Source: Octopus vulgaris (taxonomy: Eukaryota). From it: DNA of 64,000 nt. Positions within the stretch are counted from its first letter, which is position 1, and each line of letters opens with the position of its first letter. The stretch spans positions 10,540,001-10,604,000 of the forward strand of contig OX597840.1 of the NCBI GenBank assembly GCA_951406725.2, read 5' to 3'. The position numbers and the translations under genes were made by a program. The notes beneath the pieces were generated by a model. The model had not been told where the DNA came from. It did not search any database and was given only the letters and a program-made list of their open reading frames with translations. Of this stretch, positions 41,941 through 46,089 are shown piece by piece.

Positions 41941-42168
41941 ATGACCATCAAATATCTTCTGTTTGTGGCCATTTGTCTTGGCATTGCCAGAGAAATCTAT
42001 GCCCTAGATTTGACCCTGACACCTGGTGAAACCGGCGATGCTGTCATCGATGCAACCATAAGAAAAATCCGAACCAAATGTATTCTGGCACAAGATTATT
42101 ATTTCCTGAGACGGTTGGCAGAGGCCCAGATGAATTCTATCGCAGCAACAACCGGTGGAATATGGAGG
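41941..42168 (+). CDS. Paralog B exon 1: signal peptide + start of N-terminal domain
   Basis: MTIKYLLFVAICLGIAREIYA-LDLTLTPG...GGIWR, with donor AGG|GTAAGT in phase 0. Confidence 0.85.
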
Positions 42169-43862
42169 GTAAGTACCAGATTTTCACATATACACACATG
42201 TACACATATACACGCACGCACGCATGTACCTAGGTATGCACAAACACACACATATACATGCATACTCTCTCTATGTGTGTGTGGGGGGGATATGACTCTA
42301 AACTGCCTCCGGTTGTGGAGATCCGGTTCGGGATTTCCAAAGTTTTGAGGAGTATGGAACCGCCTCTCAACGGCTATTTTCCCCCGGTCTATTCTCACCC
42401 GGAGTAGTAGCACCCGTCAGGGCCCCAGCAATGGATTAAACTATCAGATGTGATGACAAATCAGCTGAGCGCGGGGATGTAAAAATCTCCTTGGTTGGTG
42501 TCAGGGTCCGCAATAAAACCACCGGGAGTGATAGACCCCTAGCCGTTGTCACAGCATCCTTTTAGGAGAGGGACACCCTGTTGTAAAACCTGCGGGTTTC
42601 ACGTCATTACTGGCCATCTCGCTCCGGCCTCTCCCTAGGCACTAGTCACAGAGACTCAGAGAATGGCACTCGTGTTGTACAAGCGTTTATCACTAAAATC
42701 CAGTGACGTAAACACGTCTATTTATGGAGACCTAGTTCTTATCTTTATCTCATCTTCTGAAGGTCCTCTAGCTATAGAAGAGAGTTTCCAATTGGAAGCG
42801 CACAGTAAGTTGCAACTTTCGACTGTCGCTTTTTGCTTCAAATTCCGCAGATCTGTAACGGGACAGTATATATTTCTTTACTACCCACAAGGGGCTAAAC
42901 ATAGAGAGGACAAACAAGGACAGACAAAGGGATTAAGTCGATTACATCGACCCCAGTGCGTAACTGGTTATTAATTTATCGACCCCGAAAGGATGAAAGG
43001 CAAAGTCGACCTCGGCGGAATTTGAACCCAGAACACTTAACGACAGACGAAATACGGCTACGCATTTCGCCCGGCGTGCTAACGTTTCTGCCGCTAAGTG
43101 ACGGGGACATAAACACACCAGCATCGGTTGTCAAGCGATGCTAGGGGAACAAATACAGACACACAAACACACACGCGCATATATATATATATATATATAT
43201 ATATATATATATATACATATATACGACGGGCTTCTTTCAGTTTCCGTCTACCAAATCCACTCACAAGGCTTTGGTCGGCCCGAGGCTATAGTAGAAGACA
43301 CTTGCCCAAGGTGCAACGCAGTATGACTGAACCCGGAACCATGTGGTTGGTAAACAAGCAACTTACCACACAGCCACTCCTGTATAAAGATATACACATA
43401 TCTTTATACATATAGTTTATAGATCAGAGACAGTTGTTCTCTATACAGAATACTCCTTGAAGTGCTCAAGAGATCTCATCTTGAGCAAATAGAGGAGTAG
43501 ATGAAAGGATAAGCAGGTTAGGTACGATGAGTTGCAGTAAATATTAAATACATTTAATTCAAAAAAACGTACATATGTTTCGATATAAAATAGTCCGACT
43601 TACGGAATATAAATAATATATTGAGTTAAACGGGTAGAGTTTTTCGAGTTCAACAGCTGTTACTGTATATATATATATATATATATATATATATATACAT
43701 ATATGTGTGTGTATGTGTGTATATATATATATGTATATATAAATATAAATATATATATATATAAATATATATATATATATACATATATATATATATATAT
43801 ATATATATTGTGTGTGTGTATATATATAAATATATATATATATATATATATATATATATATA

Positions 43863-44190
43863 TATATAATATTAATTAGAGACAAAACCACTATTTTGCA
43901 AAACAAACAAGGAAAGACTTAATCAATACATAAAATTTTAATAAAAAGTAAAAAAACCGCCACTACAATTGTTTCATGTCCTGCTCGACAATCTTCAGGT
44001 GGATTTCCAATTTTCAAGTCAGTTTGAAACTGACTTGAAAATTGGAAATCCACCTGAAGATTGTCGATCAGGACATGAAACAATTGTAGTGGCGGTTTTT
44101 TTTACTTTTTATTAAAATTTTATGTATTGATTAAGTCTTTCCTTGTTTGTTTTGCAAAATAGTGGTTTTGTCTCTAATTAATATTATATA
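43863..44190. repeat. Near-perfect ~330-bp palindrome centred at 44026 in intron 1
   Basis: ...CAAGTCAGTTT G AAACTGACTTG..., with ~165-bp arms and a 1-nt spacer. Confidence 0.92.
44050..44092 (+). ncRNA. Minimal hammerhead ribozyme with canonical core (mirror copy 43960-44002, minus)
   Basis: CCAC CUGAAGA U UGUC-gaucag-GACA U GAAA CAAUUG UA GUGG. Confidence 0.8.
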
Positions 44191-44735
44191 ATATTTTACT
44201 ATAAAATTGGATTTAATCCTAAATCTGATTTTTTTCCCTGTAAATTTGGATTTATTCCCTAATATTTATTATAAATATATATATATAAATATATATATAT
44301 ATATATATATATATATATATATATATATATATGTATATATGTATATATATATATATATATATATATATATATATATATATATATATATATATATATATAT
44401 ATATATATATATATATATATATATATATATATATATATATATATATATATATATATATATATATATATATATATATATATATATATCTGGCACCTGTGCA
44501 GGTGGCACGTAAAAAGCACCCACTACACTCACGGAGTGGTTGGTGTTGGGAAGGGCATCCAGCTGTAGAAACATTGCCAGATAAGACTGGAGCCTGGTGC
44601 AGCCTTCTGGCTTCCCAGATCCCCGGTCGAACCGTCCAACCCATGCTAGCTTGGAGAACGGACGTTAAACGATGATGATGATGATGATGATATATATATA
44701 TATATATATATATATATATATATATATATATATAT

Positions 44736-45130
44736 ACGAGCAAAACGCCCCCCAAGCCGTCCAATGGATGGTGCTGAGTTGTCAAACATTTAAACTAAAT
44801 TTTCTCAAAACAACTTGTCTGACCCTCTCATTTTGTGGCATTATTTCAAGCCAGCCGGCTTTTTTTGCGCAAACTGCATGTACCTTTTTGTTCGCGTGCG
44901 CGCAGTATCGATCGCAACAGCTGAAGTACTTGCGCGTACAAATGCACGTTCCCACGGCTTTATCGATCGCATTCTCACCTGGAATTGATATTTGTAATTT
45001 TTTCAAGACTTATACATACCCTGATACCGTCGGGATCTACATATCAAATTTGAGAGCAATCGGATGGAGGATGGCCGAAATCCTAGAAGACACACAGACA
45101 GACAGAACGGATTTTATATTATATTATATA
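44736..45130 (-). mobile_element. Possible non-autonomous Helitron-like element
   Basis: Minus strand begins TATAATATAAAATCCGTT(CTGT)n and ends in a GC-rich stretch plus CTCG|T. Confidence 0.4.
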
Positions 45131-45800
45131 TATATATATATAAATAATATCATGAGTTATATATATATATATATATATATATATATATATATATATATAT
45201 ATATATATATATATATATATATATATATATATATATATATTATATGTATATATATATATATTATATATATATATATATATATATATGTATGTATGCATGT
45301 ATGTATATATATATATATATATATATATATATATATATATATATATATATATACACTTAAGTATGTATGTATGTATGTATGCGTGCATGTGTGTGTAGTA
45401 TGTGTCTTTATCTTTTGCTTGTTTCAGTGAATTGACTGCGGCCATGCTGGGGCCCCGCCTTGAAGCGTTTTAGTCGAATAAATAGACTCCTCGACTTCAG
45501 GTTTTAAAGTCTAACAACTTATTCTACCGCTGCCTTTTACCTAACCTCTAATTTACGAGGACGTAAACAAACCAGCTCCGTCGGTGAAGCAGTGTGGTCG
45601 GAAACAAGCTCAAGCATCAAGACATAACACACACACATAAACACACACGCACATGCATACACGCATGTAGATATATTACATACATGCATACATTCATACA
45701 TACATACACACACATACATACATACATACATACATACATACATACATACATACATATATCCATACATACATACATACAACTTTGTCTTATGTTTCTGTAG

Positions 45801-46089
45801 GTAACCAGCGCCCAATTGACAATTGTCCAAAATGCTTGCAATGGCTTACTTCAAACGAAATGCAATGAAGTGACGACCGAGTTCAACGTTGATGTATCGA
45901 CCCTAACAATTTCCGACCTACAAAAACCCCTATATTCTGGATTGGTAATGAGCTTGTTTATCTTAAACTCTGTATCACCGGTTCCGCTTCAAAAAGCACA
46001 GCAAGCGCTTTCGTGGAAAAATTATATCTATTCGAACGGCGACACCACTGAATTTGTGACCTGGTCAAATGAATTAGAACAGTTAAACG
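45801..46089 (+). CDS. Paralog B exon 2: remainder of N-terminal domain
   Basis: ttctgtAG acceptor in phase 0; VTSAQLTIVQNAC...DLQKPLYSGL...QQALSWKNY...ELEQLN; G|GTGAGT donor. Confidence 0.85.

Follow-up and report, generated by a model that had tools for sequence, protein, structure and literature searches.

Introduction

Pif and BMSP are molluscan shell-matrix proteins that combine VWA with CBM14 and carry a LamG-type or acidic mineral-binding C-terminal part, and alpha-lactalbumin is a protein repurposed from lysozyme c. Here we analyse a gene of Octopus vulgaris located on the + strand of a 64,000-nucleotide window (the whole stretch of DNA analysed; C27:10,540,001-10,604,000, contig OX597840.1, in a genome of 2.8 Gb), in which exons 1 and 2 encode an unannotated N-terminal domain in front of VWA and chitin-binding repeats. 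The domain is very probably lysozyme-like and non-catalytic; its fold and the loss of its catalytic residues are both well supported. We further suggest, as a proposal about equally likely to be right or wrong, that it is a module of predicted lysozyme fold (GH23/lytic-transglycosylase-like) without the likely catalytic Glu, acting as a non-cutting binder of N-acetylglucosamine (GlcNAc)-type chains, of peptidoglycan or of chitin, within a secreted protein of octopus matrix or mucus.

In goose-type lysozyme Glu73 is the general acid, Asp97 the proposed base and Gln95 an accessory residue, and in active enzymes of the lysozyme superfamily the catalytic Glu is located at the C-terminal end of the central helix (passages of PMC2976769). 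Mutagenesis of Glu73 is cited in parts of PMC4243810. Animal lysozyme reviews distinguish the c, g and i types, with gaps in many lineages, and placozoan goose-type lysozyme has been traced to horizontal transfer, which is a precedent for the passage of GH23 from prokaryotes to early animals (both from portions of PMC12855814). Alpha-lactalbumin and the inactive lysozyme-like proteins, GH22 pseudoenzymes encoded by duplicated genes, keep the lysozyme fold without the catalytic residues (sections of PMC4243810). Lysozyme pseudoenzymes and GH23 transfer into animals were already known from these sources.

The octopus domain shares with the GH23 lytic transglycosylases (E. coli MltE 4hjy, MltC 4c5f, Slt70 1qsa and phiKZ gp144 3bkh) the predicted fold, with Z of 7.2-8.4 for the degenerate model and 7.9-9.2 for the intact one, and the E-S/T at a helix end followed by G-x-x-Q in the family. 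However, identity to them is 7-18%, there is no Pfam SLT match above cut-off, and the octopus protein is spliced, presumably secreted and equipped with VWA and CBM14, with Glu, Gln and Asp replaced in the focal gene. The family E, Q and D also align, weakly, with Glu73, Gln95 and Asp97 of goose-type lysozyme (GH23, 153L), but g-type structures appear low in the match lists (4g9s, Z 4.7 and 6.1), the nearest family relatives are phage proteins at 27-36% identity, and the octopus architecture is multidomain. The phage family phrog_3108 (phiKO2 Gp54, PMBT28 AUZ95556.1) is a direct homologue across the whole domain; unlike the octopus protein, its members have no signal peptide or VWA, their Glu is invariant, and the nearest of them form the C-terminal domain of long proteins that probably belong to the virion. 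From the GH22 pseudoenzymes the octopus domain differs in its derivation from another lysozyme family, in its approximately 16 tandem copies and in its fusion to matrix domains.

The secreted VWA and CBM14 combination resembles that of Pif/BMSP and is found here in sister copies, CBM14 being out of frame in the focal copy. However, the octopus protein has an N-terminal lysozyme-like domain, and the Pfam scan of exons 1-6 revealed no LamG-type or acidic C-terminal region. An earlier note, made from the sequence alone, had pointed to VWA and chitin-binding architectures in molluscan matrix proteins of the Pif/BMSP type; the focal protein is not a member, and belongs to an invertebrate-wide family of its own that is mostly Glu-intact.

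Gene structure and domain layout

All five introns of the six-exon gene model are GT-AG. The spliced model equals the database protein CAI9741734.1 (Octopus vulgaris, P0001), including the stop, except for one additional mini-exon of 22 amino acids in the latter; across exon 2 the identity is 100%. Exon 1 runs from ATG to a GT donor in phase 0 and its translation includes FLRRLAEAQMNSIAATTGGIWR, while exon 2 is translated as V...DLQKPLYSGL...PVP...QQALSWKNY...G...EF, so that the motifs named in the earlier note are all present in these two exons. Neither gives a Pfam match at E<=1. The product consists of a hydrophobic N-terminus, the unannotated domain of about 150 amino acids (exons 1-2), VWA in exon 3 (Pfam, E 6e-43), an unnamed middle domain, and three CBM_14 repeats in the last exon (Pfam, E 2e-14). 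The features of the focal gene are as follows.

41941..42168, + strand: exon 1, signal-like hydrophobic N-terminus (about residues 1-22), then the opening half of the lysozyme-like domain; the 3' end of the exon is matched by spliced loose ends at the edge of exon 2
42127..42132, + strand: codons Q63-M64, position of the family E-S/T (predicted catalytic acid)
42166..42168, + strand: R76, where the family has the G-x-x-Q glutamine (goose lysozyme Gln95); the Asp that follows is replaced by T78, encoded in exon 2
45801..46089, + strand: exon 2, second half of the lysozyme-like domain with the DLxKPLYSG and QAxxWK motifs
48177..48734, + strand: exon 3, VWA with intact DxSxS motif (DASGS, residues 186-190)
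52306..52430, + strand: exon 4, first part of the unnamed middle domain of about 120 amino acids; weak PPC-type lead, score 0.89
53109..53343, + strand: exon 5, second part of the unnamed middle domain
55003..55552, + strand: exon 6, three CBM_14 repeats, out of frame; stop at 55056-55058; 55037-55126 replaced by a repeat-3-like stretch

The middle domain (window 52306-53343, about 120 amino acids, PPC-type lead weak) is repeated about seven times in the paralogue P0009, which ends in a hydrophobic tail.

Predicted fold of the N-terminal domain

AlphaFold2 models were made for P0004, which is an O. sinensis copy that also carries QM and shows 83% identity to P0001 (alignment A6), and for the Glu-intact P0063. 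The predicted local distance difference test (pLDDT) values are 94.4 and 92.4, respectively, and the same helix ends with Q63 in the P0004 model and with E62 in the P0063 model. In the VIA comparison with 48,161 solved chains the best match of the P0004 model is MltE (Z 8.4, root-mean-square deviation (rmsd) 3.0, 116 residues aligned), with MltC at Z 8.2; the P0063 model matches MltE with Z 9.2, rmsd 3.5 and 125 residues aligned. Other top structural matches are phiKZ gp144, GH73 and a GH23 chitinase, and nearly all 50 rows of both VIA lists are, by title, cell-wall or chitin glycosidases or their relatives of the lysozyme superfamily. A lysozyme-like alpha-rich fold is thus predicted by both models (Z 8.4 and 9.2). 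The earlier note had proposed this fold and had set the structure prediction beforehand as the test of it; the predicted structure matches the lysozyme-like superfamily.

Both models also match an uncharacterised phage protein, with template modelling (TM) scores of 0.70 and 0.74 (E 1e-4 for TM 0.74). Independently, the Atlas gave unnamed, mostly viral clusters at 0.91-0.92, and SLT and phage-lysozyme clusters at 0.83 as leads. At the sequence level, phmmer with P0004 found no match in PDB at E<=10. Pfam PF01464 is absent above its curated cut-off from the window exons; below the threshold it matches 2 of the 60 animal-type members and 7 of the 38 phage ones. P0004 likewise has no Pfam family for the domain. 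Profile A7 was also run against PDB; the 60 rows listed of 85 all fall on its VWA tail.

Loss of the catalytic residues

In the focal gene Q63, R76 and T78 stand where the family has Glu, Gln and Asp, and a 7-residue loop is deleted. QM, which the earlier note had placed at a catalytic ES position, does align with the family E-S/T. This column holds Glu in 38/38 phage domains and in 252/282 domains outside the octopus degenerate set, and in 0/13 inside it, the set being delimited by us using names and motifs. In hhalign the animal VES pairs with the phage ET (99.9%). Searched against PDB sequences, the phage profile gives goose-type lysozymes as best matches and places the invariant E on Glu73 and the Q on Gln95, with an E of 0.13, which is weak.

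At the helix end (helix 55-65), where a catalytic Glu is expected, the focal gene has Q63, whereas the C20 paralogue and the 252/282 other domains have Glu. The hairpin with G..Q and the Asp97 equivalent reads GGIWRVT in the focal gene versus GGIWQVD in the family (Q 171/280, D 189/279) and GLMQVD in goose lysozyme. Otherwise the focal domain follows the family pattern LRRxAxxE..G...GGIW...DLxxPLYSG...QAxxW along its whole length: 31 of the 47 family columns conserved at >=75% are kept, among them GGIW, PLYSG and Q-A-x-x-W, and 16 are altered. The non-conservative changes include those of E63, G67, the deleted T-Y-R loop, W116 and Y160 (profile numbering). Since the loop is deleted and W116V, Y160I and changes in the YW/YN motif have occurred, sugar binding may be lost too.

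An unnamed invertebrate family

The profile search returned 1,100 representatives at E<=0.001, so that the domain is not a product of chance. Named members come from abalone, limpet, periwinkle, oyster, scallop, Argonauta, Owenia, brittle star, sea stars and two mites. A Pfam scan of 80 family members found VWA together with CBM_14 in 19, VWA only in 24, CBM_14 only in 5 and neither in 32; one stray match aside, no Pfam family covers the domain in them. At least 16 of the 54 metagenome loci lose their frame at a GT directly after GGIWQ, which is the octopus intron position; these loci are therefore eukaryotic genes. No description of the family or of its octopod dead branch was found in the literature searched, which omitted most subscription journals and supplements.

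Tentatively, and at somewhat less than even confidence, we propose that animals have an overlooked and widespread family of secreted glycosidases of lysozyme-like kind, separate from the c, g and i types. It would stem from a virion enzyme of phages that animals took up early, and it would be active in most invertebrates; in octopods it would have become an expanded set of diversifying glycan sensors, non-catalytic and anchored to chitin. With its conserved Glu, the family is a candidate antibacterial or chitin-remodelling enzyme among hundreds of proteins automatically named 'collagen-like' or 'VWFA-containing'. Six ENA members (P0011, P0012, P0016-P0018, P0020) carry two or three tandem copies of the domain, in which Glu is kept and the G-x-x-Q glutamine mostly replaced.

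Phage relatives

By profile comparison the domain is clearly homologous to phrog_3108: hhalign of the animal family with phrog_3108 gives 99.9%. In tblastn P0063 found 16 phage records at 27-36% identity, and the four proteins scanned are all phrog_3108, of unknown function. The earlier note had named a lysozyme-like pattern that includes phage proteins, and relatives with this pattern do exist. The window-type P0004 alone gave no phrog_3108 match, and the window exons no PHROG family for the domain. Viral contigs yielded 517 relatives; 80 of them were retained and then reduced to 38. Although the selection went by a C-terminal motif, E and Q are invariant in 38/38 of these domains.

In PMBT28 the phrog_3108 gene lies directly before a holin and an Rz-like spanin, and one more distant phage member is annotated as endolysin. 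PhiKO2 is listed among the phages with two-component spanins in passages of PMC6139136, which do not name the genes. Because a lysis-annotated neighbour is present in 3/38 representative phage loci, an endolysin role is only partly indicated. The animal domain offers a fold and a testable function for phrog_3108. The unannotated phrog_3108 proteins of phiKO2 (Gp54, L084:2842-3333) and PMBT28 (AUZ95556.1, L085:2902-3399) look like lysozyme-fold endolysins.

In quick trees the animal-type domains join the C-terminal domains of long phage proteins, away from the short ones (99-100 in the Shimodaira-Hasegawa-like approximate likelihood ratio test, SH-aLRT). The rows L190 and L191, labelled non-animal in the tree, look eukaryotic. 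The trees were built without an outgroup and thus do not give the direction of transfer; judging from the greater phage diversity, transfer from phage to animal is the likelier one. The animal-type pattern had no relative in a search of prokaryote genomes; the phage-type query gave 32 loci there, and the six examined group with phage proteins. The closest non-animal relatives found (L155:2099-2872, L188:577-3492, L264 and L265) lie on marine-type viral contigs, with the domain at the C-terminus of long proteins and some of them at least 44% identical to animal-type members.

Copies in the octopus genome

On C27, between 8.1 and 10.7 megabases (Mb), there are at least 16 close matches to exon 1 and at least 15 to exon 2. 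In the 16 exon-1 copies the position of the predicted catalytic acid is Q in 15 and K in one, always before an invariant M, and GGIWR forms the end in 16/16. Paralogues at a greater distance form a graded series: AVQSNDG (C27, 12.2 Mb), AIQSKDG and FLRSNNG (C1), and AYVESKDG...GGIWQ (C20). The C20 gene shares the first intron with the focal gene and continues with VWA, the middle domain and three repeats of chitin-binding type; a word search with its exon 1 gave no match. This single paralogue (G000:C20:72,655,900-72,666,960; L038, L073), in which the E-S/G/GGIWQ motif is complete and the architecture unchanged, is the best octopus candidate for enzymatic activity.

The degenerate copies of Octopus and Argonauta cluster in the quick trees as one group apart from the C20 gene, which joins snail proteins, and the Glu loss is common to O. 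vulgaris, O. sinensis, O. bimaculoides and Argonauta. On this grouping, the loss of Glu is old and the expansion followed it. The octopus genome with its graded series ES, QS, RS and QM is a ready case for testing the passage from enzyme to binding protein.

Last exon, expression and selection

The frame of the focal gene ends 18 codons into the last exon, at TAG 55056-55058, giving a protein of 496 amino acids. Here 90 bases (55037-55126) similar to repeat 3 occupy the site where contigs of the DNA runs X1 and X7 carry 58 different bases, and for this reason the focal CBM_14 repeats are out of frame. The right junction of the rearrangement is crossed without difference by X1 and X6 contigs; no contig among those listed spans the left junction, so that the rearrangement may be an allele or an assembly error. 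Use of an in-frame AG at 55059 could bring back two and a half CBM14 repeats; no read supporting it was found. Of seven last exons read (an eighth locus gave no reading), four are complete, two stop early (the focal one and the inverted neighbour) and one runs into a minisatellite. The sister copies L170, L171, L173 and L174 have an open frame through all three CBM_14 repeats. Therefore, the triple fusion of lysozyme-like domain, VWA and CBM14 is a trait of the family and not of the focal copy as assembled, and the fusion to chitin-binding repeats read in the earlier note stands for the sister copies, with three full repeats, and fails for the focal one.

In four probable RNA runs contig cover is restricted to exon 2, with depth of thousands or more versus 0-6 in the flanks. 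Spliced contigs occur in three of the four, with loose ends that match where exon 1 ends and where an exon 3 begins; in run X9 the loose end matches the focal gene's own exon 3. The ratio of nonsynonymous to synonymous changes (dN/dS, Nei-Gojobori) was taken between the focal copy and 12 paired copies; 11 of these comparisons give 0.49-0.77 and the remaining one gives 1.64. Together, the spliced contigs and dN/dS point to a working, fast-evolving family. A skin-mucus proteome lists unspecified VWFA proteins in passages of PMC11431876.

Alternative explanations

Several points weigh against a lysozyme-fold, glycan-binding module in a working gene. The modelled protein is the sister copy P0004 and not the focal protein, and Z of 8-9 is close to the level that VIA calls common. 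Foldseek against PDB gave no match at E<=0.001, with MltE at ranks 22-27; the Z scores being modest as well, the evidence for the fold is the coherence of the match lists. The alignment to Glu73 of goose lysozyme is weak (E 0.13), and the residue equivalence is a predicted one. Members of the family, animal and phage alike, are putative enzymes. That the runs are RNA is a guess, none of those listed being on record as such, and paralogues may supply the contigs; dN/dS lies only moderately under 1, with a median of 0.70 across 75 pairs and a maximum of 1.77. In both the focal copy and its inverted neighbour the last exon is frameshifted. Finally, the losses exceed the acid: the G-T-Y-R loop is deleted, W116V and Y160I have occurred and the YW/YN motif is altered, and this loss of several conserved aromatic residues weighs on retained glycan binding. 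With the cleft region so remodelled, retained glycan binding is about as likely as its loss.

It is accordingly conceivable, though rather unlikely, that the dead domain no longer binds sugar and serves as a protein-binding or purely structural module of the secreted matrix, a change of use like that of alpha-lactalbumin. The loop deletion and the lost aromatic residues would suit such a role, as would the Y found in the focal domain in place of the YYN-motif N, invariant in 38/38 phage proteins, and the fast surface variation among copies, in which 46 of 150 positions, mostly hydrophobic, are invariant. However, GGIW, PLYSG and Q-A-x-x-W are retained, and the earlier-branching octopus paralogues changed E to Q with S and G kept, a pattern that suggests a trap rather than collapse. 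Decay of the focal copy or of the cluster, with Glu loss and frameshift as steps of pseudogenisation in a birth-and-death array, is improbable: the Glu loss is common to the three Octopus species and Argonauta and hence older than the breaks, the exon-2 frame is open in 14/15 cluster copies found, and spliced contigs exist. It would account for the frameshifted last exons of the focal copy and the inverted neighbour, the upstream copy's minisatellite, a single exon 2 with a frameshift (L013/L020) and dN/dS near or above 1 in some pairs, and it may hold for the focal copy alone. Very improbable is an enzyme that works through E61, two residues before Q63, or through another acid. E61 is present in 11/16 cluster copies, the focal one included, but V replaces it in 4/16 and K in 1/16, nearest neighbours among them, and the family column is Tyr or another non-acid. 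The i-2 position of the helix would also face away from the cleft, and the hairpin Gln and Asp are lost as well.

Proposed scheme

For the non-cutting glycan binder we suggest the following scheme. It builds on observed sequence, splicing, family, substitutions and tandem expansion, on a predicted fold and residue equivalence, and on secretion, loss of activity and binding as inferred properties.

Step 1: The ancestral layout would be the lysozyme-like domain followed by VWA, the middle domain and three CBM14 repeats, and this layout survives Glu-intact in the octopus C20 gene, snails, bivalves and others.

Step 2: In the octopod duplicates Glu would have been replaced by Gln, Arg or Lys, and Gln by Arg. 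The C27 cluster would then have lost also the S/T and the 7-residue loop and expanded to about 16 copies.

Step 3: The dead lysozyme-fold domain may hold GlcNAc-type glycans without cutting them, the VWA site may bind partner proteins, and CBM14 may tether the full-length copies to chitin. The focal copy as assembled would be without the chitin tether.

Other features of the window

Parts of two further copies lie in the window.

3407..7420, + strand: 3' exons (4-6) of the neighbouring copy; third CBM_14 repeat interrupted by a 19-base minisatellite
61847..62332, - strand: last exon of the next, inverted copy, frameshifted too; its exons 1-2 are outside the window

The 19-base minisatellite (GAAGGCTCAAAGGCGTT type) is found at window 7405-7520, inside the third CBM14 repeat of the upstream copy, and at 56085-56310, 3' of the focal gene. 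Intron 1 of the focal gene contains a long near-perfect inverted repeat (window 43945-44270, centre near 44040), and a similar fold-back stretch is located at about 51050-51330. Retroelement remnants, assigned by eye to a Penelope-like element with reverse transcriptase (RT) and GIY-YIG-type parts and to RT fragments of the long interspersed nuclear element (LINE) type, lie on the - strand at 11218-15570, 58564-59294 and 62489-63529. A tandem array with a unit of about 183 bases occupies window 19660-22430, and the unit is also scattered through the window.

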